This document shows, piece after piece, positions 1 through 20,127 of a stretch of 64,000 nucleotides of DNA; position 1 is the first letter of the stretch, and each line of letters starts with the position of its first letter. The stretch is from the NCBI GenBank assembly GCA_022711175.1, contig JAKLFM010000001.1:69780-133779 (forward strand), in the 5' to 3' direction. Below the pieces are notes generated by a model, which was not told the DNA's origin, did not search any database, and saw only the letters and a program-made list of their open reading frames with translations. The DNA comes from Bacteroidota bacterium (GTDB taxonomy: Bacteria; Bacteroidota; Bacteroidia; Bacteroidales; UBA4417). The translations under genes and the position numbers were made by a program.

Positions 1-589
1 TTTCCATGGAGCGGTCGAGAATTTCAGTATATGCGTCAACATTGTTGCCGAACTGCTTTTCGCGTATCATATGCAGGTAGCCGTCGATGGCATTGAGGGG
101 CGCCTTGAGTTCGTGCGACAACACTGAAAGAAACTGAAACCTTATTTGTTTGCCGGTACTGTTGAGCGATTGGGTCATTCGCTTCAGGAAAAGCTGCTTC
201 GTGATATTTTCGATGCTTGCTCTTATTTCCTGGGGTGTGAAAGGCTTCGGAATAAAGTCAATAGCGCCGTCGCGGGTGGCTTTAACGGCAAGTTCGAGCG
301 AGGCATACGAAGTTATCATTACAACAATGATGTCGTAATGCTTATTTTTTACATACTCTAATACTTCAACACCTTGAATATCAGGCAGCTTATTGTCTAA
401 CAGCAGGATATCGGGCTGTTGTGTATCTATAATTTCGATCCCCTCGCTTCCAGTGGCTGCTTCAAGTATCTCGAATTCAATGTGTTCATCCATAAAAGGA
501 TAATCCACTTTGAAATTCTGCAGAATACGCCTTGTGCCATCGCGAATTCCCTGCTCGTCGTCAATTACTAAGATTTTGAAAGTGGCCAT
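1..589 (-). CDS. Hybrid response-regulator receiver / histidine kinase, N-terminal part (gene runs off the left edge)
   Basis: Reverse translation from ATG 589-587 gives MATFKILVIDDEQGIRDG..., a receiver domain (LLLDNKLPD). It is followed by a kinase H-box, SHELKAPLNAIDGY. No stop codon occurs before position 1. The start lies 2 nt after the stop of the upstream receiver gene. Confidence 0.75.
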   Translation of the reverse strand, partial: MATFKILVIDDEQGIRDGTRRILQNFKVDYPFMDEHIEFEILEAATGSEGIEIIDTQQPDILLLDNKLPDIQGVEVLEYVKNKHYDIIVVMITSYASLELAVKATRDGAIDFIPKPFTPQEIRASIENITKQLFLKRMTQSLNSTGKQIRFQFLSVLSHELKAPLNAIDGYLHMIREKQFGNNVDAYTEILDRSME

Positions 590-1022: not shown

Positions 1023-3050
1023 TTACAGCATCCGCTTCCTCGGAAGGGTGATTGTGAAGGTGGTTCCAGTAGCCCCTTTCAAAATATCGGCATTTGAATC
1101 TACTTTAACATCGCCTTTATGCATTTTCACAATGCCGTATATGATTGGAAGTCCGAGGCCTGTTCCTTTCCCAATGCCTTTGGTAGTAAAAAAAGGTGTG
1201 AAGAGCTTGTCCATATGCTCTTGCAGTATTCCCGAACCATTATCGGTAACACGTATGAAGATAGTTTCATCTGTATCGCTGAGGCTGAGGGTGATTTTAC
1301 CTCCTTCGGGCATTGCCTCAACCGAATTCTTGATCAGGTTTGTAACAACTTGTGTCATTTGGTCGTAATCGAGCATCGCCTTATTGTTGATAAGGTGGTT
1401 TTCGAGTATAAGGCTTATGTTAGAGGGAATCACAACTGAATTCATACTATGTTCGGCGAGCTCTGACAAGTCGATCTCAGTTATGTTCACCTGGTTCTTA
1501 CGTGCGAAGTTCAGTAATCCCCCGACGATTTTCCGGCAACGGTCGGCTTGTTCAACTATGAGTTCCAAATCTTTATGAATGGGGTTTTCCTGGGGAATTT
1601 CTTCGCGTAATATATTGCTGTACATGGTGATAACACCAAGCGGGTTGTTGAGTTCATGAGCAATTCCCGCTGAGAGCTGTCCCATACCTGCTAATTTCTC
1701 CGAGTGTCGCAGGGCTTCCTGCACTGTTGCCAGTTTCTCGTTTGAGATGTTGAGTTCGCGGATATATTTATGCAGTTTTTCGATGGAATATGGCAGGCAC
1801 ATTTCTGTTTCTGCAAGTCCGCTGAGTATGGCTACAGCATGTTCTTCGCATGAATCGTAGCCACAGGCGCCGCAATTGAGGTAATCGCCCGGCCCGTACT
1901 TTCCCATCCTGAACATCACTTCCCTGATTTGCTCGTTTGAAGGCCTCACCCCGCGCATATCGATTGATTTAAATGATCGCGACAGGTCGAGTTTGCTATA
2001 TTCATCAAGATTTTTCTGCCATTCATCGCGATCGATCACGGCCATTTTTGCATTGGCATAATTGATAATTCGCGCCTTTTTAGCGTATCGGTTGCTGCTG
2101 GCCGAAGTGTTGAGGTATGGCGACATGCCGGGGCCCATAATGCAGCCTTCGCAACACAACAGGTGAACATGATGGCCACGCAGGTTGCCTTGTTCATATT
2201 CGCGGAGGGCATCCTGGAAATTGGCCTTTCCGCCAGCAACTATTACATTCTCGCTGAGGATATCCTCGGTGACTTCCATTGTGTTGAGCAGGCCGTGGCT
2301 AAGCGGGAAAATAGCCCCCCTGCCCGACAATGGCGGATCAAATTCGGATGGCGTTATACTTTTTGGATTGATGCGGCTGTCGTTAAACATCTCGCGCAGT
2401 TCCCTGAAAGTGATGGCGTTGTCAATTTCTTTCGATTCGGCTTTTTTTGCCAGGCATGGCCCGATAAAAACCAGAATCGAATCAACACCATAAATGCTTC
2501 TCACAACCCTGGCCATAGCAACCATGGGCGAAACAACCTCAGCCAGGTTACCCACCAGGTCGGGGTAGTAACGTTCAATATATGATACAATAGCAGGGCA
2601 ATCGGATGAAATGGCCGGCAAACCGTTGTCAAGTTGTTCCTTATATTTACGTGCAACCAGATCGGCCCCGAAAGCCACCTCGGTTACATGACGAAAGCCA
2701 AGTTTCCTGATCATGCCTACGAAAACCTTATGATCGGGAATATCGGCAAATTCGGCGGGAAAACTGGGCGCCACCAGGGCAATAACTTTGGCACCGGATT
2801 GTATGAGTTTTGTTACAGGGTCAATTTCGCGGCGAAACACCTTAGCGTTTTGGCTGCAAACCTTTATACAATTGCCGCAGGCAATGCAGCGCTCGGTAAT
2901 CACTTCGGCCTGCCCGCCAGCAATGCGTATGGCTTTGGCCGGACACTCGCGCACACAGGTATAGCACATCCGGCATTTCTCCCTGATGGTGAATACCAGT
3001 TTGGCAATGGCCGGGTTTGGCTGATTTACATTATATTGAGTGTCTTCCAT
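1023..3050 (-). CDS. [FeFe]-hydrogenase-like (H-cluster domain) sensor fused to a histidine kinase (HisKA + HATPase_c)
   Basis: The N-terminus has 2x 4Fe-4S motifs (CRMCYTCVRECP, CIACGNCIKVC). Degenerate H-cluster motifs follow: SSDCPAIV, GPCLAKKAE, LLCCEGCIMGPG, plus CGACGYDSC. After a coiled coil come the H-box AHELNNPLG and DNGSGI...GTGLGL. The gene starts 23 nt downstream of hydA. Confidence 0.85.
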   Translation of the reverse strand: MEDTQYNVNQPNPAIAKLVFTIREKCRMCYTCVRECPAKAIRIAGGQAEVITERCIACGNCIKVCSQNAKVFRREIDPVTKLIQSGAKVIALVAPSFPAEFADIPDHKVFVGMIRKLGFRHVTEVAFGADLVARKYKEQLDNGLPAISSDCPAIVSYIERYYPDLVGNLAEVVSPMVAMARVVRSIYGVDSILVFIGPCLAKKAESKEIDNAITFRELREMFNDSRINPKSITPSEFDPPLSGRGAIFPLSHGLLNTMEVTEDILSENVIVAGGKANFQDALREYEQGNLRGHHVHLLCCEGCIMGPGMSPYLNTSASSNRYAKKARIINYANAKMAVIDRDEWQKNLDEYSKLDLSRSFKSIDMRGVRPSNEQIREVMFRMGKYGPGDYLNCGACGYDSCEEHAVAILSGLAETEMCLPYSIEKLHKYIRELNISNEKLATVQEALRHSEKLAGMGQLSAGIAHELNNPLGVITMYSNILREEIPQENPIHKDLELIVEQADRCRKIVGGLLNFARKNQVNITEIDLSELAEHSMNSVVIPSNISLILENHLINNKAMLDYDQMTQVVTNLIKNSVEAMPEGGKITLSLSDTDETIFIRVTDNGSGILQEHMDKLFTPFFTTKGIGKGTGLGLPIIYGIVKMHKGDVKVDSNADILKGATGTTFTITLPRKRML

Positions 3051-3073: not shown

Positions 3074-4801
3074 TTACAGCAATACTTCCCTTTTTTGGTA
3101 ATCAGTATAGAGCATCTGGCGTATCTCCCCGTTAACGGGCAGATCAAGATAGTTGTCGTAGAGTATTTGCAGATCGGGATTTTTAAAAGGTGTTTTAACA
3201 GGCTCTTTATCGTCAATTTCATATATGGCTTTAGCCCTGGCTTTTACAGCTCCGTCATCATGGCTGGCCGGCTGGCCGCCGCCACCCACGCAGCCACCGG
3301 GGCATGCCATCACTTCAACGAAATGGATATCAGTGCGTCCCGCCTCAATTTCATTCAGCAATGTTTCGGCGTTTCCTATTCCGTTTACAACCGCAAAGCC
3401 TAGCGTAAAGTCGCCAATTTTTACTGTAAACTCTTTAATTCCTTTTGATGACCGAAGCTCGGTTATGCGCTTTGCCTGCAAATCTTTACCGGTAATCATC
3501 ACAAACAGCACCCTGATGAGCGCCTCGGTCAGTCCCCCGCTAACGGCTAACATTTTGCCCGAAGCACTCCGGCTTCGGTACGGCTGATCCGACATTTCGG
3601 GTTCAACCTGCTGAACATCAATGCCATTAAGACGAATCAGCCTGGCGAGCTCGCGGGTTGTCAGCACCATATCAACATCCGTAATACCTTTGTGAGTCAT
3701 TTGTTCGCGTTGCGACTCAAACTTCTTCGCGATACAGGGCATAGCCGAAACGGAATAGACTTTTTCGGCCTTTAATTTCCTGCTTTGAGTAAAGTGATTG
3801 CTTATCAACGTGCCCATCATTTGCTGTGGCGATTTGCACGTTGAAATATGATTGAGAAGCTGAGGCCTGAATTGCTCGGCATACTTGATCCATGCAGGGC
3901 AACAGCTCGAGAACATTGGTGTTTTACCACCATCGCGAAGCCTGCTGAGCAATTCGCCGGCAAGCTCGGTAATGTACAGATCGGCTGCAAACGAGGTGTC
4001 GAATACGAAATTGAAACCAATTTTTCGTAGAACAGCGTACATTACCCCTTCCATATCTTTTCCTGTCCTGAAGCCAAATTCCTCGGCCAGGGTGACCGAT
4101 AAGGTAGGTGAACACTGAATAACCGTTTGTATTTCAGGATTATGGAGTTTCTCCTGGAGTTCAGCAGGATGCTTTTTTTCCGTTAACGCGCCTGTAGGGC
4201 AAACAAGAATACACTGTCCGCAGTTGATACAACTCGAAAGGTTCATGCCTTTGTTGAAGGCTGGACCTACCTGCATTTCGTTACCGCGCCCGATAAATTC
4301 AAGGGCTGTAACATTCTGAATTTCTTCGCAAACCCTTATGCACCTGCCGCAGAGAATGCACTTGGCGGGATCACGGAATAGCGAAGCACTTGAAGGATCG
4401 GTTTTGTATTTATTCTTTTTACCAAAGAACCTGCGTTCGCGAACATAGAGGTCTTCGGAAAACTTTTGCAATTCGCAGTTACCGTTACTTTCGCAATAGA
4501 GACAGTCGTCAGGATGATTGCTGAGCAGCAATTCGATGTTTGTTTTTCGGGCTTTGATGACGCGGGGTGAATGTGTACGAATTTTCATCCACTCTTCAAC
4601 CGGATGTGAGCAGGCAGGCAGCAAGCCTTGTTTTCCTTCAACCTCAACAACGCACATACGGCATGCCCCCGAAGGCTGCAATCCGCGTATATGGCACAAC
4701 GTTGGAATGCTTATGGCATTTCGCTCAAGCGCCGACAAAATCGTTTCGCCGTTGCGCGCCTTTATGGTTTTACCGTTGACTTCTATATCGAAAAACATCA
4801 T
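3074..4801 (-). CDS. hydA: [FeFe]-hydrogenase catalytic subunit (HydA/HndD type, 575 aa)
   Basis: N-terminal 2Fe-2S and several 4Fe-4S motifs are present. All three canonical H-cluster motifs are intact: FSSCCPAW, MPCIAKKFE, EVMACPGGCVGGGGQP. Confidence 0.92.
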   Translation of the reverse strand: MMFFDIEVNGKTIKARNGETILSALERNAISIPTLCHIRGLQPSGACRMCVVEVEGKQGLLPACSHPVEEWMKIRTHSPRVIKARKTNIELLLSNHPDDCLYCESNGNCELQKFSEDLYVRERRFFGKKNKYKTDPSSASLFRDPAKCILCGRCIRVCEEIQNVTALEFIGRGNEMQVGPAFNKGMNLSSCINCGQCILVCPTGALTEKKHPAELQEKLHNPEIQTVIQCSPTLSVTLAEEFGFRTGKDMEGVMYAVLRKIGFNFVFDTSFAADLYITELAGELLSRLRDGGKTPMFSSCCPAWIKYAEQFRPQLLNHISTCKSPQQMMGTLISNHFTQSRKLKAEKVYSVSAMPCIAKKFESQREQMTHKGITDVDMVLTTRELARLIRLNGIDVQQVEPEMSDQPYRSRSASGKMLAVSGGLTEALIRVLFVMITGKDLQAKRITELRSSKGIKEFTVKIGDFTLGFAVVNGIGNAETLLNEIEAGRTDIHFVEVMACPGGCVGGGGQPASHDDGAVKARAKAIYEIDDKEPVKTPFKNPDLQILYDNYLDLPVNGEIRQMLYTDYQKREVLL

Positions 4802-4853
4802 GGATGTTTTGTTATTGTTCAGGGAAACAGATTATTAGGCCAGGTTTCATTAT

Positions 4854-6785
4854 TTACTTGATTGTTATGGCTACAAACTTGCATACGTCGTAACAAATAC
4901 CGCAGCCTATGCATTTATCCTCGATAATGAAATGCGGCTGCCTTGGCTGACCAACAATTGCATTGGTAGGGCATTTGCGCAGGCAGGCAACGCAACCTGT
5001 ACATTTGTCCACTTCGATGTAGAACACCCGTAACTCCTTACACACTCCGGCTTTGCACCTGCGGTCGAAAATGTGTTCTTCAAATTCATCGCGAAACCAT
5101 TTCATAGCACTCACCAGCGGGTTAGGAGCTGTTTGCCCCAATCCGCAAAGCGATGTATCACGTATCACTTCCGATAGTCCTTCGAGCTGCATGATGCCTT
5201 TGAACCGTTCGAGCACTTCGTGCCCGGTTTCGCTGGGCGGCCTGCGTGTAATATTTTCAAGTATTTCATGAATACGGCGTGTACCTTCGCGGCAGGGAAT
5301 GCACTTACCGCAACTCTCCTGTTGCAAAAAATCCATGAAGAACTTCACCATATCAACCATGCAGGTATTCTCATCCATCACCACAATGCCGCCCGAACCC
5401 ATGATTGCACCGGCTTCCCACAGCGATTCATAATCAACCGGCAAACTGAGCTGCTGCTCGGGCACACAACTTCCTGATGGGCCACCGATTTGCAATGCTT
5501 TGAATTGTTTTTCGTCCTTAATGCCTCCGGCAATCTTAAACACGAGGTTTTTGAGGGTCGTCCCCATTTCAACTTCAATAAGCCCTGTAACTGCTGATTT
5601 TCCGGTAACGGCAAATACCTTTGTTCCTTTGCTGGTGGCAGTTCCGATACTGTTAAACGCCTGCGGCCCGTTTTTAAGGATATAGGTAACGTTCGACAGC
5701 GTTTCTACATTGTTAATAACGGTAGGCTTTCTGAACAGCCCTTCCACTGCAGGATGCGGCGGTTTGGGCATAGGCATGGCCCTCTTACCCTGGATACTGT
5801 TAATCAGGGCGGTTTCCTCACCGCACACAAATGCACCCGGACTTACTACCACATTGATTTGCAGGTCGATACCGCTCTTGAAAATATTGTAACCCAGCAG
5901 GCCGTATTCTTTCATCTGTGCAATAGCTGTGCGCAGATGCCTTATAGCCTGCTGATAATCGGCCATGATGTAAATATATGTTTTGGTGGCGCCTATGGCA
6001 TATGCAGCAATAGCAATGCCCTCGAGCAATGCATGAGGGTCGCCTTCGATAACAGCACGATCCATAAAAGCGCCCGGATCACTCTCTGCAGCATTACAAA
6101 CCAGGTATTTCTGATCGCTTACAGTATTATGAGCTGTTTTCCATTTTCGTCCGGTAGGGTAACCTCCACCTCCGCGCCCGCGTAAACCACTTTCGTCAAT
6201 AATATCGCAAACTTTTTCGGCAGTATAATTGCTGAGGCATTTAAGGTATGTTTGGTAACCGCCGCGTGCAATATAATCAGCAATATTCTGCGGATCAATT
6301 TTACCGCAATTGGCAAGTACTATACGGTGCTGATGTTTAAAAAACGGGAGTTGGCCGATATCGTCAACCCCTTGGTATGCCTGGTGAAGCGGATTAAAAA
6401 ACTGCCCGAGTACATAATCCTGCGGAACAATACCATTGAAAATATCGTCGAGCACAGGTTCAACCAGTGATTCGTCGATATTGCGAAATGAGATGCGTGA
6501 TTTACCCGGTAACTGAACATCGAGCAGCGGTTCGGCTGAGCAAAGGCCTATGCAGCCTACTTCAACCGTTTCGGCATCAATGTTTTTCTCCGAAAGATAA
6601 TTTCGCGTGGCTTGCAATGTTTTATCAGCGCCTGCAACAATACCACAACTACCTGTTCCTACGTAGATTACAGGACGTTTGATTCGTTCGCGGCGAATTT
6701 CGGCAAGCCTTTTCAAAGCAGCCTGCCCATGATCGGGAGCTTTAGCCGTTAGAATTTCTGAGATCAAGAATTCCCTGTCGCTCAT
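4854..6785 (-). CDS. hydB: NuoF-like NAD(P)H/FMN-binding hydrogenase subunit (HydB/HndC type)
   Basis: The protein has an N-terminal thioredoxin-like 2Fe-2S domain and the FMN/NADH motif GLRGRGGGGYPTGRKW. It also has ESCGKCIPCREG and a C-terminal 2x CxxCxxCxxxCP. Confidence 0.9.
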   Translation of the reverse strand: MSDREFLISEILTAKAPDHGQAALKRLAEIRRERIKRPVIYVGTGSCGIVAGADKTLQATRNYLSEKNIDAETVEVGCIGLCSAEPLLDVQLPGKSRISFRNIDESLVEPVLDDIFNGIVPQDYVLGQFFNPLHQAYQGVDDIGQLPFFKHQHRIVLANCGKIDPQNIADYIARGGYQTYLKCLSNYTAEKVCDIIDESGLRGRGGGGYPTGRKWKTAHNTVSDQKYLVCNAAESDPGAFMDRAVIEGDPHALLEGIAIAAYAIGATKTYIYIMADYQQAIRHLRTAIAQMKEYGLLGYNIFKSGIDLQINVVVSPGAFVCGEETALINSIQGKRAMPMPKPPHPAVEGLFRKPTVINNVETLSNVTYILKNGPQAFNSIGTATSKGTKVFAVTGKSAVTGLIEVEMGTTLKNLVFKIAGGIKDEKQFKALQIGGPSGSCVPEQQLSLPVDYESLWEAGAIMGSGGIVVMDENTCMVDMVKFFMDFLQQESCGKCIPCREGTRRIHEILENITRRPPSETGHEVLERFKGIMQLEGLSEVIRDTSLCGLGQTAPNPLVSAMKWFRDEFEEHIFDRRCKAGVCKELRVFYIEVDKCTGCVACLRKCPTNAIVGQPRQPHFIIEDKCIGCGICYDVCKFVAITIK

Positions 6786-6813
6786 GCTTTTTCTTTTATA
6801 CCCTTACTGTGAT

Positions 6814-7275
6814 TCAGGCTCTTTTGCGAATGACGTCGAAAAGTAATGCCAAATCGCCGGCTGACAGGACGGTATGAAATTCACCGTTGATGGCAATGAT
6901 TGGCGCTTTGCTACATGCCCCCATGCAGTTAACAACCTGCAGGCTAAACATGCCGTCGCGGGTTACCTGCCCATCGCGGATTTTAAGCAGCTTTTCAATT
7001 TCACGCAGCAGCGATACAGCTCCCTCGATATGGCAAGTAGTTCCGCCGCAAACCTGGAGGTGATACCGGCCCTTCGGCATAAATCTGAAATGGTCGTAAA
7101 AGGTAGAAATACCGTAAACCTTACTTGATGGCAGCCCAACATACCGTCCGACGGCTACAACCGCTTCCTCCGACAAATAGCCAGCTTCTTCCTGGATTTC
7201 CTGCAAGAGTGGCAATAAGGCTTCACGGCTCCCTTTTTTATACCTCGAACAAATTACATCAATGTCAATCGGCAT
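6814..7275 (-). CDS. hydC: NuoE-like [2Fe-2S] hydrogenase subunit (HydC/HndA type)
   Basis: The CGGTTCHIEG...CMGACSKAP cysteine pattern matches the NuoE family. It is the first gene of the minus-strand operon. Confidence 0.88.
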   Translation of the reverse strand: MPIDIDVICSRYKKGSREALLPLLQEIQEEAGYLSEEAVVAVGRYVGLPSSKVYGISTFYDHFRFMPKGRYHLQVCGGTTCHIEGAVSLLREIEKLLKIRDGQVTRDGMFSLQVVNCMGACSKAPIIAINGEFHTVLSAGDLALLFDVIRKRA

Positions 7276-7354
7276 ACTAATTTTTCTTGGGGTATCAGCT
7301 ACAAAAATAACTATTCTCTAGGATTTGAAAGAATAAATTGTTAAAAAAATAACA

Positions 7355-7372
7355 GTGTTATTGAAATAACAA
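7355..7372. promoter_or_regulatory. Rex-like palindromic operator candidate in the divergent hyd promoter region
   Basis: GTGTTA-TTGAAA-TAACAA matches TTGTTA-N6-TAACAA at 11 of 12 half-site positions. It is embedded in AATAACA-G-TGTTATT-GA-AATAACA (7348-7371). It lies about 80-97 nt from both divergent start codons. Confidence 0.4.
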
Positions 7373-7453: not shown

Positions 7454-7708
7454 ATGGACCCACTGAAAAAAGAGATAGTGATCTGTCTTGGCAGTTCATG
7501 CTTTGCACGCGGCAACAAATCGGCAATAAAAGCAATTACCGAGTTCCTGAAGGAACACAATCTGCAGAATGATGTTAATTTTCGTGGCGAAAGGTGCTTT
7601 GGTATGTGCGCTAAAGGACCTGTTTTGAAATTGGGTAACGTTTATCACGAAAATGCCGATACCGAATCAATCATACTCTTACTCCGCGATTACCTCGAAA
7701 TCAATTAA
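7454..7708 (+). CDS. Small thioredoxin-like [2Fe-2S] ferredoxin (84 aa)
   Basis: Four Cys residues occur in CLGSSC...CFGMC, as in the NuoE C-terminal fold. It is the first gene of the plus-strand sensor operon. Confidence 0.75.
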   Translation: MDPLKKEIVICLGSSCFARGNKSAIKAITEFLKEHNLQNDVNFRGERCFGMCAKGPVLKLGNVYHENADTESIILLLRDYLEIN

Positions 7709-7742
7709 TACCATCCCCCTTATAAATTAAGCTCCAGTGATT

Positions 7743-9602
7743 ATGGAAAGCCCGCTGCTGCATATAAATGCTGACCTCTGTAAGGAGTGTTATGCCTGCA
7801 TACGTATATGTCCTGTAAAGGCTATCGAACTCAGGGCTAACGAAACCGTGCCATTTATTGCTGATTCCCGCTGCATTGGATGCGGGAGTTGCCTCGAAGT
7901 ATGTCATCCCAAGGCCATTATTTATTATGATTCGCGACAGGATGTGCGAAAGCTGCTCGATTCCGAATCAAAAGTAACTGCCCTGCTCGATCCAAGCATA
8001 TCAGCCGAATTCGACGATATTACGGATTACCGCAAGTTTGTCGCCATGGTTAAACAACTGGGTTTCAACTATGTACACGAAACAGCTTTTGGAGTTGATC
8101 TGGTTGCAAAAGAATATCATGAACTGGTGAGTAATTTCCTGGGCAAATACTACATACTGGCAAATTGCCCTCCCATTGTATCACTTGTTGAGAAATATCA
8201 CCCGGCGCTAATCGAAAACCTTGCTCCCATTGTAAATCCAATGGTTGCATCAGCCAAAGTTGCCCGCATGCTGCATGGTGATGATACACATATTGTTTTT
8301 ATAGGCCCTTGCCTGGGGGCAAAAACCGAAGCCATGCGGTTCGAAGGCGACGGCGCTGTGGATGCTGTGCTGATGTTTGATGAACTGCGACGAATGTTCG
8401 AAGAAACCGGCATCAAAGAAAGTACCATCGAATACGCCGATTTTGAAGAACCTACAGGATACAAAGGTTCATTGTTTGCCCTTAGCGACGGCATATTGCA
8501 GGCAGCCGGCCTAAGCCAGGATATGCTTACAGGCACCATGGTTACCATTGATGGCCGCGACCGTGTCTTGCAGGCGATAAAGCAGTTTGAAGAAAGTATT
8601 GATTACATCCGCAAGAACTTCAACATTTTCTATTGCGAAGGCTGTATCATGGGTCCCGGAATGAAGCCAAACGGCATGAAACTGAAACGCCGGACCGAAG
8701 TGGTAAGCTACAGCAATAAACGACTGGCTAATTTCGAAAAAGGTAAATGGATTAAAGAACTGAATCATTTCAGCGGTATTGAACTCAGGCGGACATTTGC
8801 TGCTGATGACCAACGGTTAGCCCCGGCGCCTAAGGACAAGGTGGAAGAGATTCTCAAAATCATAGATAAAGGTGACGGAGAGATGGACTTAGGTTGCAAG
8901 GCTTGCGGATACGAAAGCTGCCGCGATTTTGCCGAAGCAGTTGCTAACGGAATTGCACGAACCGACATGTGCATAAATTATTCTCTTCGAAGCAAACAGG
9001 AATACATTAAGTCGCTGAAAGTCACCAACGAGAAGCTGGCCAAAACGCAACAGGCTTTGCAGGATTCGGAAAAGCGTGCGCTCATCGAAAAACAAGCTAC
9101 CGAAGATGCACTCGAAACAACACAGACCATGCTTCGCAAACTGCCTACAGCAGTGCTTATTGTTGATGAGTCGCTGAAAATCATTGCATCAAACGAAAGT
9201 TTTATAACCATCCTGGGCGAAGAGGCTGCCGATATCAACGAAATAATTCCCGGTTTGGTGGGTGCCGACCTCAAAACACTGCTGCCTTTCAATTTCTACA
9301 AACTCTTTCAGTATGTTCTCACCAGTGCCGATGATATTGTTGGCCGCGATGTTCACCTGAATGATAAGCTGCTGAATGTCACCATCTTTTCGATAAGGAA
9401 AAATAAAATTGTTGGCGGTGTGGTTCGCGACATGTATATGCCCGAAGTAAGGAAAGAAGAAGTGATAAACCGCGTAACCGATGTAATAGAGCAAAACCTG
9501 GAACTCGTTCAGCAGATTGCCTTCCTTCTCGGCGAAGGAGCTTCAAAAACTGAAAAGATGCTGAATTCGATCATTGAGTCGCATCAATCCAAAGAAGAAT
9601 AA
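7743..9602 (+). CDS. HydS-like sensory [FeFe]-hydrogenase homologue with a C-terminal PAS domain
   Basis: 2x 4Fe-4S motifs (CKECYACIRICP, CIGCGSCLEVC) are followed by ANCPPIV, GPCLGAKTE, FYCEGCIMGPG and CKACGYESC. A coiled coil and a PAS-like region (TAVLIVDESLKIIASNESF) follow. I prefer the ATG at 7743; the ORF track starts at GTG 7737. Confidence 0.85.
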   Translation: MESPLLHINADLCKECYACIRICPVKAIELRANETVPFIADSRCIGCGSCLEVCHPKAIIYYDSRQDVRKLLDSESKVTALLDPSISAEFDDITDYRKFVAMVKQLGFNYVHETAFGVDLVAKEYHELVSNFLGKYYILANCPPIVSLVEKYHPALIENLAPIVNPMVASAKVARMLHGDDTHIVFIGPCLGAKTEAMRFEGDGAVDAVLMFDELRRMFEETGIKESTIEYADFEEPTGYKGSLFALSDGILQAAGLSQDMLTGTMVTIDGRDRVLQAIKQFEESIDYIRKNFNIFYCEGCIMGPGMKPNGMKLKRRTEVVSYSNKRLANFEKGKWIKELNHFSGIELRRTFAADDQRLAPAPKDKVEEILKIIDKGDGEMDLGCKACGYESCRDFAEAVANGIARTDMCINYSLRSKQEYIKSLKVTNEKLAKTQQALQDSEKRALIEKQATEDALETTQTMLRKLPTAVLIVDESLKIIASNESFITILGEEAADINEIIPGLVGADLKTLLPFNFYKLFQYVLTSADDIVGRDVHLNDKLLNVTIFSIRKNKIVGGVVRDMYMPEVRKEEVINRVTDVIEQNLELVQQIAFLLGEGASKTEKMLNSIIESHQSKEE

Positions 9603-9619
9603 CCTATGCAGGAAAGCTC

Positions 9620-10831
9620 ATGAGTGTTACTACAGCAAACAACCAGCTTAATAACCCGTTCTACGTTGAAGTAAACGTGGTTCATAAAAATTATGACCTG
9701 GAACGTATTTGCGGCGACCATTTCCTTTCGAAGCGCATTTATGAAGAAAACAGGATCATTGCCGTACTCAGCGATGGTATGGGTCATGGCGTGAAGGCAG
9801 CAATGCTTTCGACGCTTACAGCTACAATGGCTCTCAACCTCACCGAAGAACACAAGGATGTGCAGCGTATTGCCGAAATCATTATGAATACGCTGCCGGT
9901 TTGCAGCGAACGCAAAATGAGTTACAGCACCTTTACAATTGTTGACATTGAAATTGACGGCTATACCAGGATACTTGAATACGATAACCCGCAGACTATT
10001 ATCCTGCGTGGCAATAAGATCCTCGACCCCGACTGGCAAACCATTACATTAGTGTCGGAAAAAAATGCCGGCAAGGAACTCCGCACATGTTCGTTTGTAC
10101 CACAAAAAGAAGACCGCATTGTTTTTTGCTCCGATGGAGTGGCACAATCGGGGATGGGTGGTACAAAGTATCCTTTTGGTTATGGCCAGGAGAACATGGC
10201 AAAATATATGCAGGAACTCATCACAAGCGATAAAACCATTTCGGGCGCGCAACTAGCCGCAAAAATGGTAAACATGGCAGTGATGAATGACAACTATCAT
10301 CCGAAAGACGATACCAGCTGTGCAGTTATTTATTTCCGCGAACCCCGGCGACTGCTCATTTGTACCGGCCCTCCTTACGAAGAAACCAAAGACACAGAAC
10401 TTGCAGAAGTGGTAAAGGCTTTCGACGGTAAAAAGATCATTTGCGGCGCTACCACCGGCGATATAATCAGCCGCGAACTCGGAGTTCCTATTATCGACAG
10501 TTTTGAATTTGATGATACCGACCTGCCGCCCGTTTCGTTTATGGATGGTATTGATCTTGTTACCGAAGGCATTCTTACATTGGGCAAGGTTTCGGAAATC
10601 CTGAAGAATCATTCGCAGAAGTATAAACTCGGCAAAGGCCCTGCCGATCAAATAGTAAGGCTGTTGCTCGACAGCGACGATATTCACTTCATTATCGGAA
10701 CGCGTATCAACATCGCTCACCAGGACCCGAGTCTGCCGGTCGAGCTCGAAATCAGACGCACGGTTGTCCGCCGTATTGCAAGGCTGCTCGAAGATAAGTT
10801 CCTGAAAGAAGTGACGATGAATTTTATTTAA
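9620..10831 (+). CDS. PP2C/SpoIIE-family serine phosphatase with an uncharacterised C-terminal module of about 165 aa
   Basis: CGDHF...VLSDGMGHGVKAAMLS...FCSDGV...DDTSC are typical SpoIIE/PP2C metal-binding motifs. The gene starts 17 nt after the PAS-sensor stop. Confidence 0.8.
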   Translation: MSVTTANNQLNNPFYVEVNVVHKNYDLERICGDHFLSKRIYEENRIIAVLSDGMGHGVKAAMLSTLTATMALNLTEEHKDVQRIAEIIMNTLPVCSERKMSYSTFTIVDIEIDGYTRILEYDNPQTIILRGNKILDPDWQTITLVSEKNAGKELRTCSFVPQKEDRIVFCSDGVAQSGMGGTKYPFGYGQENMAKYMQELITSDKTISGAQLAAKMVNMAVMNDNYHPKDDTSCAVIYFREPRRLLICTGPPYEETKDTELAEVVKAFDGKKIICGATTGDIISRELGVPIIDSFEFDDTDLPPVSFMDGIDLVTEGILTLGKVSEILKNHSQKYKLGKGPADQIVRLLLDSDDIHFIIGTRINIAHQDPSLPVELEIRRTVVRRIARLLEDKFLKEVTMNFI

Positions 10832-10965: not shown

Positions 10966-11760
10966 TTATTCACACACTACATCAGCATGGCTGCCATCCC
11001 AGCAATGCCAGTTTGAGTCACTGTAATGGCCAGGATCTTTTACCCGTCCGTTTTGGTTTGTGCGGTGCCATTTTATCTCAGTAAGATTGGTATTGGCAGT
11101 GTAAAAAATGTTGTAGAAAGCATTAAAATCAGCTTCGTTGTTGATTCCATAGACAATATAAGTACCTTTATTACTGCTTGTTACAAGCACATTTTCATAC
11201 TTGATATCTGCAGAGCCATCGGTGTTTTTATGCCATGTGATTTTGATAAAATCCTGGTTGTTAACCGGATCGTTCTTTAAAATCCATGAACCTTCGGTGC
11301 CCGCGAGGTTCGATTGGCCTGAATACCATTCAAAATCGCTGAATGAGCCATTTTTAGTAACGTACATTTCCCAGTTTACACCGTTTGTTATGAAACTGCC
11401 ATGCAACTCGGCGAGGTAAACATCGCTGCCAACCGTAACGTTGTACGACCATACCCAGCTTTCGGTTGCCGGATCATACACCGCTTCGTGATTGAAAGCT
11501 TCTCTGAACGAAGCAACAGGCACAGCCAGGTTAACAGTAAGTATTGTATTCCAAATACTTACATTGGCAACTGCCCAAAGATAATGTAAGTGTGTTGCAG
11601 CTGTTGATTTTTCACCACCGCTAAAGTCGCTCATATCCATAATAAAGGTGGACTCGGGTGGCAGTGTTGGTGCGGTTTTCTCTTCGTCTTTTTTACACGA
11701 AAAATGGGTTGTTGCAAGCAAAATAATCAGGACGCCGGAAACAAGAACTTTGGTTTTCAT
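10966..11760 (-). CDS. Hypothetical lipoprotein
   Basis: A signal peptide with lipobox (LLATTHFSCKKD) is present. I recognise no family. Confidence 0.6.
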   Translation of the reverse strand: MKTKVLVSGVLIILLATTHFSCKKDEEKTAPTLPPESTFIMDMSDFSGGEKSTAATHLHYLWAVANVSIWNTILTVNLAVPVASFREAFNHEAVYDPATESWVWSYNVTVGSDVYLAELHGSFITNGVNWEMYVTKNGSFSDFEWYSGQSNLAGTEGSWILKNDPVNNQDFIKITWHKNTDGSADIKYENVLVTSSNKGTYIVYGINNEADFNAFYNIFYTANTNLTEIKWHRTNQNGRVKDPGHYSDSNWHCWDGSHADVVCE

Positions 11761-12032: not shown

Positions 12033-12530
12033 TCAAATCATCGTATCGGGATTTTCGAGTTTTATCTTTTCGCCCGGGTTGAGGTTCATATCGCCGGCCA
12101 TTTTTTCGACTGAAGGCCAGAGTGTAGCAAAGTAAGCAATGATGGCTATTCCTATTCCAAGTATGATCATGTTGCCGGTAAGCATAAATGCTACGATGGC
12201 GAAAAATGATGGCCCTTCGGTTGTGGCGTACTTGACAATGAGTGCCGCACGGTAATCGTTCAGTTTTTCCGAAAAGTTTCTTCGTTCACTGAGAGCAGTC
12301 ATCCGGCTGTTGAAAATATAAATTCCGGCACCAATAATAGCGGCAGCGAGCAGTATTACCGCTATAAGCAGTATTTTTTCAAATGAAAAGGTCGCCGGAA
12401 ATGTTCCTGATTTTATCATAAACCAAGCTACTACGGCAAAGAAAACCTGCCCGGCCAATAATGCTCCGAAAATTATTTTCAACGACTTAAGGTATGAGCC
12501 GGTGGTTGGGGTTAGTGGATTGGTGTCCAT
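12033..12530 (-). CDS. Hypothetical membrane protein (about 4 TM)
   Basis: Four hydrophobic segments are visible. I recognise no family. Confidence 0.55.
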   Translation of the reverse strand: MDTNPLTPTTGSYLKSLKIIFGALLAGQVFFAVVAWFMIKSGTFPATFSFEKILLIAVILLAAAIIGAGIYIFNSRMTALSERRNFSEKLNDYRAALIVKYATTEGPSFFAIVAFMLTGNMIILGIGIAIIAYFATLWPSVEKMAGDMNLNPGEKIKLENPDTMI

Positions 12531-18627: not shown

Positions 18628-19884
18628 TTAATATTCTTTTTCATACATCACCACATACGAAGCCCCGTAATGGTCCTCATAAGTCATCATTAACCTGTCA
18701 ACATGTTCCATGTTCGGTTCGAGCGGAGTATTACCCCAAACAATGTTCTGGCAAGCCAAGGTATGGCTTGTAGTTGAGGCCGGTAATCTGTCCGATCCGT
18801 ATGTACCGCTCTGGTTGGGAATTGCCTCACATTTGGGCCCTGTTCCTTCAATTTGAACCATGATGTTGTCAATCAGTGCATCCACATCAAAGTTTACGAC
18901 TCCGGCTGGCATTCTGTAAGTCCAGGTAACTTTATTCATGGTGCCGTCGCCATTGAGTGCAACCGTGGGAAACGGATACACAATATTACCATCAACATAC
19001 GACTGGTCGGGCAGGTTGAAAGTAAGGATTTCGTTGTTGTATTTTACGGTGTAGATGCCGCCGGCAGGAATGTATGATATGGGGCTGTTTGGATCGGAAA
19101 GGTACTGTGTTGAGTAAATGCGTGAATCGTCATAAGTGAGGTCACCATCCGATGGTGTATTGGCAAGCGGCGATCCGGAAGGGCCGGTAAAATAAACCTT
19201 TTCGGGAAACGAAGCATCTTCAACGGTCAGAAACAAACGGTAACCTTCGATAAGTTTGGTGTTGTCGAACGACGGGGTGAGTTGCGGCACATGAAAGTTA
19301 CCCGGTTTGATAAAGTAAATCACCGAAAGCGAGAACGACCGCCCTTCGAGCAGGTCAATAGTTCCGTTGCCGTTTACATCAGGATTCTTCAGTAGTGCCG
19401 ACAGGTAATCGTCCATGCCGGCAACAATGGTTACCTGGGCGGGAGTTAGCGGAATAGAATTGCCGATAGGATTGGATGAAGGCGTGAAAACGGCTCCGCT
19501 GCGGCTAATGCTACTAAGATTTAGCGTATCCGCGGTTTCGGCCAGATAGTGTAGCGGAAGCGTTTCGATACCGTTGCCCAGCGACAGCAGTCCGATCGGT
19601 TTGGCTGCGCTGTTCAGGAATACGAGTCCCCATGGCCTGCCGTTGTCGAGCTGCAGGCTGAAGGCGCCGTTGGCTACCTCCGATTGCTTATAATCGTTGT
19701 CAGTTGAAATGGCAAGTACAGAGGTAGCTTCGGCTGCAGTAGCATCGAGCGTTCCGGTAACGATCACGGGCGAGCCGTTTCCGTCGCCGGGAGTATCATC
19801 GTCATCTTTGTTACATCCGGTTATCAGGGCAACAACTCCTGCCATAAGGAGCACGCATAAAAGTAGTAACTTGTTGGTTTTCAT
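18628..19884 (-). CDS. Hypothetical lipoprotein
   Basis: The internal start MKTNKLLLLCVLLMAGVVALITGCNKDDDD gives a signal peptide plus lipobox. The upstream ORF extension looks spurious. Confidence 0.6.
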   Translation of the reverse strand: MKTNKLLLLCVLLMAGVVALITGCNKDDDDTPGDGNGSPVIVTGTLDATAAEATSVLAISTDNDYKQSEVANGAFSLQLDNGRPWGLVFLNSAAKPIGLLSLGNGIETLPLHYLAETADTLNLSSISRSGAVFTPSSNPIGNSIPLTPAQVTIVAGMDDYLSALLKNPDVNGNGTIDLLEGRSFSLSVIYFIKPGNFHVPQLTPSFDNTKLIEGYRLFLTVEDASFPEKVYFTGPSGSPLANTPSDGDLTYDDSRIYSTQYLSDPNSPISYIPAGGIYTVKYNNEILTFNLPDQSYVDGNIVYPFPTVALNGDGTMNKVTWTYRMPAGVVNFDVDALIDNIMVQIEGTGPKCEAIPNQSGTYGSDRLPASTTSHTLACQNIVWGNTPLEPNMEHVDRLMMTYEDHYGASYVVMYEKEY

Positions 19885-20127
19885 TTGAGTATGATTGAGG
19901 TTTGGATTGAGCGGGACTGAACAATAACATTTTGCGGTGACCAAGACACACAAATGTATTACGTTCGATTGATACTCCGGTATAATTCGCTGTATATTAA
20001 TGGCCTGCGGGGTGAAAAGTGACATCTTTATGTGAGTGATCAGGTTTTATTATAATTGCAACACAAATATGTTCCTGATCGAAAAGGAATACTTCAACAA
20101 GCTATGAATATGATAACTTATACGTTG

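Follow-up and report, generated by a model that had tools for sequence, protein, structure and literature searches.

A putative sensory [FeFe]-hydrogenase with a directly fused histidine kinase and a clade-invariant aspartate at the proton-relay position in a Bacteroidota hydrogenase gene cluster

The stretch of DNA analysed here (hereafter, the window) comprises 64,000 nucleotides (nt) of a Bacteroidota genome (GenBank assembly GCA_022711175.1, contig JAKLFM010000001.1), and translation of its open reading frames (ORFs) together with Pfam matches revealed that its left 11 kb are a hydrogenase gene cluster (Table 1). Three genes on the reverse strand, hydC, hydB and hydA (3074..7275), are identified by their domain content as encoding a HydABC-type, group A3-like catalytic [FeFe]-hydrogenase, and they lie directly upstream of a fourth gene, hydS-HK, which is the subject of this report. 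Its product, HydS-HK, is assigned by its motifs to a recognised class, that is, the putative sensory [FeFe]-hydrogenases (group C-type) linked to histidine kinases. What distinguishes HydS-HK within this class, as far as sequence comparison can tell, is a clade-invariant, natural Asp at the position of the first proton-relay Cys that occurs without the rest of the relay, combined with a heptad-locked connection to the kinase.

Table 1. Positions, strands and supporting evidence for the features of the hydrogenase gene cluster (window coordinates; aa, amino acids).
Feature	Position	Strand	Basis
REC-HisKA(-HATPase) hybrid kinase gene, 5' part, cut by window edge	1..589	-	Translation, Pfam
Stand-alone CheY-like receiver, 128 aa	592..978	-	PF00072; 44 nt downstream of hydS-HK
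hydS-HK, 675-aa putative sensory [FeFe]-hydrogenase + class I histidine kinase	1023..3050	-	ORF, Pfam, 120 full-length homologues of same architecture
HisKA (aa 457-519) + HATPase_c (aa 561-672), H/N/G1/F/G2 boxes	1035..1682	-	Pfam; box residues invariant
Signalling helix/coiled coil, C418 to phospho-acceptor His465, 47 residues	1656..1799	-	Translation, linker lengths, predicted helices 419-435 and 443-466
C-terminal Cx2Cx4Cx16C Fe-S domain, aa 391-420 (C393, C396, C401, C418)	1791..1880	-	PF04060; Cys invariant
H-domain, aa 88-309, ligands C151, C199, C300, C303; K202/E205	2124..2789	-	PF02906, CpI/TmHydA alignments, column statistics, Foldseek
Asp150 codon = CpI Cys299, first proton-relay residue	2601..2603	-	Alignments
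N-terminal 2x[4Fe-4S] ferredoxin motifs, aa 22-69 (C26/29/32/36, C55/58/61/65)	2844..2987	-	Pfam Fer4 families
hydA, H-cluster subunit	3074-4801	-	Pfam, NCBIfam; reads MFSSCCPAW
hydB, NuoF-like flavoprotein	4854-6785	-	Pfam, NCBIfam
hydC, NuoE-like [2Fe-2S]	6814-7275	-	Pfam, NCBIfam
Two TGTTA-N6-TAACA palindromes, 17 bp apart	7339-7354 and 7356-7371	.	Between hydC and divergent 2Fe2S/hydS(PAS) genes
Thioredoxin-like [2Fe-2S] ferredoxin, 84 aa	7454-7708	+	Pfam
HydS-PAS paralogue, 621 aa, Asn at relay position	7737-9602	+	Pfam; reads ILANCPPIV
SpoIIE/PP2C phosphatase	9620-10831	+	Pfam

From its N- to its C-terminus, HydS-HK consists of two [4Fe-4S] ferredoxin motifs, whose eight Cys are invariant in 46 homologues, the H-domain, a C-terminal Cx2Cx4Cx16C Fe-S domain, a coiled coil, and the HisKA and HATPase domains. 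Pfam assigns Fe_hyd_lg_C (2.5e-47), HisKA (1.6e-13), HATPase_c (4e-25), FeS PF04060 (3.3e-08) and Fer4 to these parts, with the PF02906 match reaching 162 bits vs. a cutoff of 22.1; no PAS domain was detected by Pfam, and the HisKA/HATPase module comes after the Fe-S domain. The AlphaFold2 model of the protein has a mean predicted local distance difference test (pLDDT) score of 70.8, with the H-domain mostly above 80, and a Foldseek search with this model returned the [FeFe]-hydrogenase structures CbA5H, HydABC and CpI at E values of 1e-16 to 1e-19. The kinase part shows what is expected of a class I (HisKA) histidine kinase, namely the H, N, G1, F and G2 boxes (H465-ELNNPL; N571/N575; D603-x-G-x-G; F620/F621; G627-x-G-T-G-L-G-L), all of them invariant, and a receiver encoded nearby; its best match in the PDB is ZraS (9jfj, 1.3e-37). 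The PDB search with HydS-HK matched only catalytic hydrogenases and isolated kinase cores and no sensory HydS structure, and NCBIfam holds no model that names the protein, all matches being below the cutoffs and the best ones being generic AtoS/ZraS kinases and FeFe_hydrog_B1.

To place this architecture among its relatives, we used a word-indexed search, which returned 120 clusters of full-length homologues (63-100% identity) with the same Pfam architecture in all of them, and an exhaustive HMMER search, for which only the sensor part (aa 1-430) served as query and which returned 945 cluster representatives at E <1e-30. The 150 representatives referred to throughout are the best 150 of these 945, and each represents a 50%-identity cluster; a species-level genome collection provided, in addition, the best 80 loci, or 81 with locus L001. 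These best 80 loci all come from metagenome-assembled genomes of Bacteroidota, including Lentimicrobiaceae (the closest, 87%), Tenuifilaceae, Prolixibacteraceae, Rikenellaceae and others. A fused HisKA/HATPase is present in at least 44 of the 150 representatives, and a PAS-like C-terminus in 56. As judged from domain content, the hydrogenase-like module is a widely reused, modular putative input domain, and its fusion to a kinase is ordinary. Hence, the kinase fusion highlighted in the initial annotation is not unusual, given the 44 or more representatives that share it and the fact that HydDB has a C1 'histidine kinase-linked' class. Other outputs were also seen on the combination of 2x[4Fe-4S], H-domain and Fe-S module, i.e., GGDEF, sigma-54 AAA+, MCP-like and PAS-kinase (P0136, P0142, P0160, P0162, P0166, P0168, P0180 and others).

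Comparison with known systems is consistent with this placement. HydDB labels group C1 as 'histidine kinase-linked (putative)', a Bacteroidales genome paper describes a C1 protein adjoining a bifurcating hydrogenase, and a Hydrogenedentota study reports sensor subunits with a fused His-kinase domain (C3), citing HydDB entries with the same feature. Such C1 'histidine kinase-linked' and C3 fused forms (e.g., WP_006928132.1; Petrimonas mucosa ING2E5A_0849) resemble HydS-HK in being kinase-associated or kinase-fused and in lying beside a group A3 bifurcating hydrogenase; they are known from bioinformatic classification alone, and, within the searchable literature, we found no paper on their relay residue or linker register. 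HydS-HK also displays the sensory features listed in PMC8163306, that is, N-terminal 2x[4Fe-4S] motifs, an H-domain from which the canonical proton pathway is missing, and the Cx2Cx4Cx16C motif at the C-terminus, the latter being carried by M2e and M2f sensors alike (PMC8163306), and it is encoded with a group A hydrogenase (23 nt downstream of hydA). It lacks the C-terminal PAS domain of M2f, however, and departs from group D (M2e) as described in the same work in having Gly rather than Ser/Thr at the M353 position (CpI numbering, as for all pathway residues below) and a fused kinase.

Among the individual proteins, TmHydS (group C, M2f) shares with HydS-HK the 2x[4Fe-4S] motifs, the H-domain, the four-Cys C-terminal cluster, Gly at M353, the loss of C299 and of the canonical proton pathway, and the encoding with a HydABC-type hydrogenase; it has Ala at the relay position, Ser at M497 and a PAS end, whereas HydS-HK has Asp, Leu, and a coiled coil followed by HisKA/HATPase. 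The HydS of Thermoanaerobacter mathranii (TamHydS; group D, M2e) is similar in having no PAS domain, a C-terminal [4Fe-4S] cluster and Leu at M497, but its kinase-like ATPase comes from a separate neighbouring gene, and proteins of group D carry Ser/Thr at M353 and have a proton path of their own (Glu252/Glu289). The [NiFe] pair HoxBC and HoxJ (HydDB group 2b) follows the same logic, with a low-activity hydrogenase controlling a two-component kinase that regulates hydrogenase genes, although its metal centre and fold are unrelated, its sensor and kinase are two distinct polypeptides and a PAS-like domain occurs in HoxJ. Finally, the kinase core of HydS-HK is nearest to ZraS, AtoS and FixL chimeras; the coiled-coil-coupled kinases of this kind (FixL, YF1, ZraS/AtoS) likewise have sensor-DHp linker lengths in a single heptad class, but their input is a PAS or periplasmic domain as opposed to a multi-cluster hydrogenase module.

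The most distinctive residue of HydS-HK is Asp150. The protein reads AISSDCPAIV, with codons 2595-2609 of the reverse strand encoding SSDCP, and HMMER pairs the segment lpaisSDCPaiv with LPQFTSCCPAWV of Thermotoga maritima HydA (7p5h) and with FPMFTSDCPGWV of CpI C299D (6GLZ). The latter is the best-scoring CpI entry in the PDB and outscores wild-type CpI because of its Asp. In a MAFFT alignment of the 150 representatives with the HydA of the window, D150 falls in the column of the first Cys of SCCP. The initial annotation had placed Asp in HydS-HK, and Asn in the PAS paralogue, at the CpI C299 relay position and had proposed that the equivalence be checked by alignment or AlphaFold modelling; both placements are borne out by HMMER (against 7p5h and 6GLZ) and by MAFFT with the 150 representatives, and the AlphaFold2 model has a hydrogenase fold. 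Likewise, the six statements about sequence made there agree with the translations of HydA, HydS-HK and the 621-aa paralogue.

Asp150 is conserved without exception among close relatives: all 120 homologue clusters read (S/T)SDCP, and the Asp is present in 81/81 Bacteroidota loci, down to 56% identity. In the PAS paralogue of the same genomes, the equivalent position drifts, being N in 28/40 cases and otherwise M, I, V, A, C, T or S. Outside the Asp clade, the kinase-fused members of the best 150 representatives have P (15), T (10), A (8), S (4), N, H, F or L at this position and never D; Asp occurs among the best 150 only in two fragments of the HydS-HK clade and in one PAS-type protein. P0262 points to Asp having arisen at least twice. 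The accessible part of a HydDB survey gives Cys (17%), Ala (43%), Pro (10%) and Ser (10%) at the relay position of sensory enzymes and does not name Asp. Across the genomes sampled, the Asp is a feature fixed in the clade of one Bacteroidota group, and it is probably under constraint there. Several other features are likewise shared throughout the Asp clade but seldom seen outside it: HydS-HK's own Cys299 (CpI A498, next to a cluster ligand), His294 (CpI F493), Ser206, and a Pro-Tyr insertion after L3 (aa 311-312). These may be functionally linked to Asp150.

The residues that hold the cofactor and those that move protons in catalytic enzymes have fared differently in HydS-HK. Equivalents of the H-cluster ligands (CpI C300, C355, C499 and C503), K358 and E361 are present and invariant in the HydS-HK family, as are the APS and SP motifs and F417, and L2 reads GPCLAKKAE vs. 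MPCIAKKFE in HydA. Based on the alignments, HydS-HK departs from group A catalytic enzymes at the relay Cys (Asp), at E279 (its equivalent falling within a 4-residue deletion common to all sensor-type relatives), at E282 (K), R286 (Q) and S319 (A), and at M353 (Gly) and M497 (Leu), whereas the HydA of the window retains C299, E279, E282, R286, S319, M353 and M497, i.e., all that characterises group A. The end of L3 is GPGM in both sensor paralogues vs. GGGGQP in HydA; the initial annotation was right to report GPGM in the two paralogues, but the change is not special to them, as Pro is present in 128/150 representatives and is thus a property of the sensor group as a whole.

What an Asp can do at this position is known from engineered catalytic enzymes. 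Asp is the only substitution of C299 that keeps group A enzymes active, with C299D retaining 30-80% of H2 evolution, and in CpI C299D its carboxylate hydrogen-bonds the azadithiolate (adt) amine at 2.7 A; H2 uptake, in turn, is only 1-2% in the C169D variant of HydA1, and the activity of C299D rests on an otherwise intact pathway (all PMC6226526). The variants CpI C299D (6GLZ), CrHydA1 C169D and CaHydA C298D have the same local motif, (T/S)SDCP, as HydS-HK, but in them the rest of the pathway (water, E279, S319, E282 and R286) is intact, while it is absent in HydS-HK. The idea that Asp might retain partial proton transfer is therefore plausible for the first step and unlikely for the classical route beyond it, with E279, E282, R286 and S319 gone. 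Since the other relay residues are gone, Asp can be at most a local proton acceptor or tuning residue. That is, Asp150 is best seen as a putative local hydrogen-bond partner or proton acceptor of the adt amine that would tune the reactivity with H2, and not as the entry to a working channel.

The connection between sensor and kinase has a regular length. For the directly kinase-fused sensors among the representatives P0121-P0270, we determined how far the phospho-acceptor His lies from the last Cys of the Cx2Cx4Cx16C motif; in 27 of 34 direct fusions this distance was 33, 40, 47, 54 or 68 residues, all 5 mod 7, and it was 47 in all 120 close homologues of HydS-HK. The binomial probability of such a register is 3e-17 when computed over proteins. 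Since related proteins are not independent observations, the more cautious value is the 1e-3 obtained when distinct length classes within the ZraS-like H-box subtype are counted instead. Linkers quantised in heptads are the hallmark of an uninterrupted coiled coil, which holds sensor and DHp domain in a fixed angular register. The register supports a mechanical coupling in which the coiled coil would carry the signal, and it points to the C-terminal Fe-S domain as the probable node of transmission. Transmission through the coiled coil, which the initial annotation had put forward from the likeness of two linkers, thus gains independent support from the periodic linker lengths. The likeness itself is real, with NEKLATVQEALRHSEK and NEKLAKTQQALQDSEK of HydS-HK and the PAS paralogue being identical at 11/16 residues; the linker motif recurs in relatives such as P0132, and the SEKLA at its C-terminal end forms the conserved beginning of the DHp helix in the HisKA subtype of HydS-HK.

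Beyond the sensor kinase gene, the organization of the cluster is itself conserved. The gaps between hydA, hydS-HK, the stand-alone receiver (REC) gene and the hybrid kinase gene (REC-HK) are 23, 44 and 2 nt, respectively, and the order hydCBA-hydS(HK)-REC-REC/HK, with hydS(HK) as the fourth gene, is kept across related Bacteroidota loci. For instance, HydA adjoins hydS-HK upstream in 64/71 related loci, and both the stand-alone REC and the REC/HK hybrid lie downstream in 74/74. The hybrid kinase gene begins 2 nt after the receiver gene, and its full-length orthologue has 375 aa (L002 12475-13602); such a REC-HisKA hybrid would imply that the sensor kinase feeds a phosphorelay of several steps. 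Next in the closest relatives come rex, ribF, a gene of the metallo-beta-lactamase fold and a HydG-like radical SAM gene. This radical SAM/BATS gene (a HydG- or HydE-like maturase) is found about 4 kb downstream of the sensor kinase (L001 16999-18393, L002 16225-17661), and the equivalent region of the present genome falls beyond the window edge. Scans of the cluster for terminators and for sigma-70 promoters gave counts not above those in shuffled sequence, and no terminator signal stands out.

On the other side of hydC, a divergent [2Fe-2S]-HydS(PAS)-PP2C unit (7454..10831) is present in about 40 of 63 related loci. HydS-PAS is 38% identical to HydS-HK over 441 aa, and its PAS domain is a sub-threshold Pfam match (E 0.003-0.025) that is not called at the default threshold. 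A recent duplication of the two paralogues was considered and ruled out, since they share only 38% identity and each is nearer to proteins in other clusters. HydS-PAS reads GPCLGAKTE at L2 (aa 190-198), so that Ala stands in for K358, the partner of the distal CN ligand, and is followed by Lys (C-x3-K vs. C-x2-K); none of the 40 co-located PAS paralogues has Lys at the first of these two positions, where members of the kinase clade read KK without exception. HydS-PAS also has Asn instead of the near-invariant Ser of the SP motif.

The two TGTTA-N6-TAACA palindromes between hydC and this unit are the only matches to the pattern in the 64-kb window (2 vs. 0.06 expected), and they recur upstream of hydC in 39/66 related loci. 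They resemble the Rex operator TTGTGAANNNNTTCACAA and look like a variant of it, and rex lies in relatives just past the position equivalent to the left edge of the window. On this basis, two hydrogenase-like sensors that would feed different signalling chemistries seem to be joined in this cluster with the sensing of NADH by Rex. The genes from 10966 to about 24000, the limit to which the window was scanned, are unrelated to the cluster (SDR, aminotransferase, fucosidase, AIM24, permease and DUF5723). Three ORFs there, 10966-11760 (-), 12033-12530 (-) and 18628-20025 (-), of 264, 165 and 465 aa, match no Pfam family at E<=1e-5. The 264-aa ORF opens with a lipoprotein-like signal (…LATTHFSCKKDEE).

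With moderate confidence, we favor as the best explanation of the whole that HydS-HK is a sensory HydS with a directly fused histidine kinase, in which an H2 signal would travel through the Fe-S domain and the heptad helix to the kinase, with Asp150 acting as a tuning residue. Specifically, H2 would react slowly at the H-cluster, and the resulting change of state in the H-domain and Fe-S domain would pass through the C-terminal [4Fe-4S] domain, the last Cys ligand of which appears to start a continuous helix. This helix, which is in fixed heptad register with the phospho-acceptor His, may then shift the kinase/phosphatase balance. The conserved adjacency suggests that the phosphate would go to the CheY-like receiver and/or to the receiver of the next hybrid kinase, and the expression of hydrogenase or fermentation genes might thereby be set to the H2 partial pressure, beside the sensing of NADH by Rex.

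Several points weigh against this explanation. The other kinase-fused clades, with P, T, A or S at the relay position, indicate that Asp is not required for kinase-fused sensors, and, because roughly a third of the alignment columns show no variation within the Asp clade, the invariance of D150 is by itself weak proof of a special role. The M497L change impaired [2Fe] insertion in CpI (PMC10055695), although TamHydS naturally has Leu at this position (PMC8163306). Confidence of the AlphaFold2 model is low in the linker (pLDDT <50 for residues 437-473). Further, H2 does not reduce the C-terminal cluster in TamHydS (PMC13104023), and hence the transmitted signal may be conformational rather than a redox change of the cluster. 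Finally, our literature search found no paper reporting autophosphorylation of an H-cluster kinase, and no final DNA-binding output was identified within the cluster.

Alternatively, the Asp might be a neutral variant, that is, a residue historically fixed at a freely varying position with no bearing on sensing, a view that we regard as doubtful yet worth serious attention. The position is indeed the most variable of L1 across the representatives (A, P, S, T, C, N, H, F, Y, V, L and D), the HydDB survey, in its accessible part, shows the spread of residues given above, and the A131C change in TmHydS lowered, rather than raised, activity. Neutral fixation, however, has to contend with the invariance of D in 81 species-level loci and 120 clusters while the same position drifts in the PAS paralogue of the same genomes, and with the co-occurrence of the Asp with other clade-specific changes beside the cofactor.

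It is also conceivable, if unlikely, that HydS-HK is a redox sensor in which the H-domain is an Fe-S scaffold similar to eukaryotic Nar1/NARF-type proteins without a functional [2Fe] site, with the kinase reporting on the ferredoxin/HydABC electron pool via the N- and C-terminal [4Fe-4S] clusters. The three invariant accessory cluster motifs, the location of the gene directly behind those of the bifurcating HydABC, and the hardly detectable H-cluster motifs of Hydrogenedentota C1 proteins (Hydrogenedentota study) would all fit such a role, and so would the Leu at M497, in view of the impaired [2Fe] insertion in CpI (PMC10055695). Yet the four H-cluster Cys, K358, E361, the APS/SP motifs and F417 are all kept and invariant, TmHydS and TamHydS bind a functional H-cluster with similar substitutions, and a HydG-like maturase is encoded nearby in relatives, although the last point is circumstantial.

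Of comparably low probability, in our view, is that catalysis has been restored, i.e., that HydS-HK is a slow hydrogenase in which Asp150 feeds a non-canonical proton path and the kinase follows catalytic electron flux and not H2 binding: of the C299 replacements, Asp alone leaves group A enzymes active (PMC6226526), clade-specific protonatable residues co-occur with D150 (its own C299 at CpI A498, H294 at CpI F493, and S206), and the Glu-based alternative pathway of TamHydS demonstrates that rerouting happens, but the canonical continuation (E279, S319, E282 and R286) is gone, HydA1 C169D retained only 1-2% of H2 uptake (PMC6226526), and the architecture and operon position are those of a regulator.

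More speculative than any of these, and quite improbable in our estimate, is a reading in which Asp150, together with HydS-HK's own Cys299 and His294, would act as a dead-end acceptor, storing the outcome of heterolytic H2 cleavage as a local change in protonation or charge that reaches the phospho-His mechanically, via the C-terminal [4Fe-4S] domain and the heptad-locked helix, with the sister sensor (Asn at the relay, shifted Lys, PP2C) covering a different range of H2. If this were true, HydS-HK would be a natural, directly assayable H2-to-phosphorylation transducer.

To return to the explanation that we favor, i.e., a sensory HydS signalling through its own kinase, the architecture will come as no surprise to specialists, but the protein offers a good experimental system for how HydS proteins signal. 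TmHydS and TamHydS have been the subject of spectroscopic studies, and a 2026 study named their signalling partners and read-out as a key gap (PMC13104023). Here, the kinase fusion would provide a built-in, quantitative read-out through autophosphorylation and phosphotransfer to the adjacent receiver, and the heptad-locked linker would provide a concrete, mutable element of transmission. The clade-invariant Asp, as a natural counterpart of C299D, would allow a clean test of how the proton acceptor in the first shell tunes sensing in contrast to catalysis. Among fermentative Bacteroidales and Lentimicrobiaceae the operon is widespread, and it probably links the H2 partial pressure to the expression of the bifurcating hydrogenase in these organisms.

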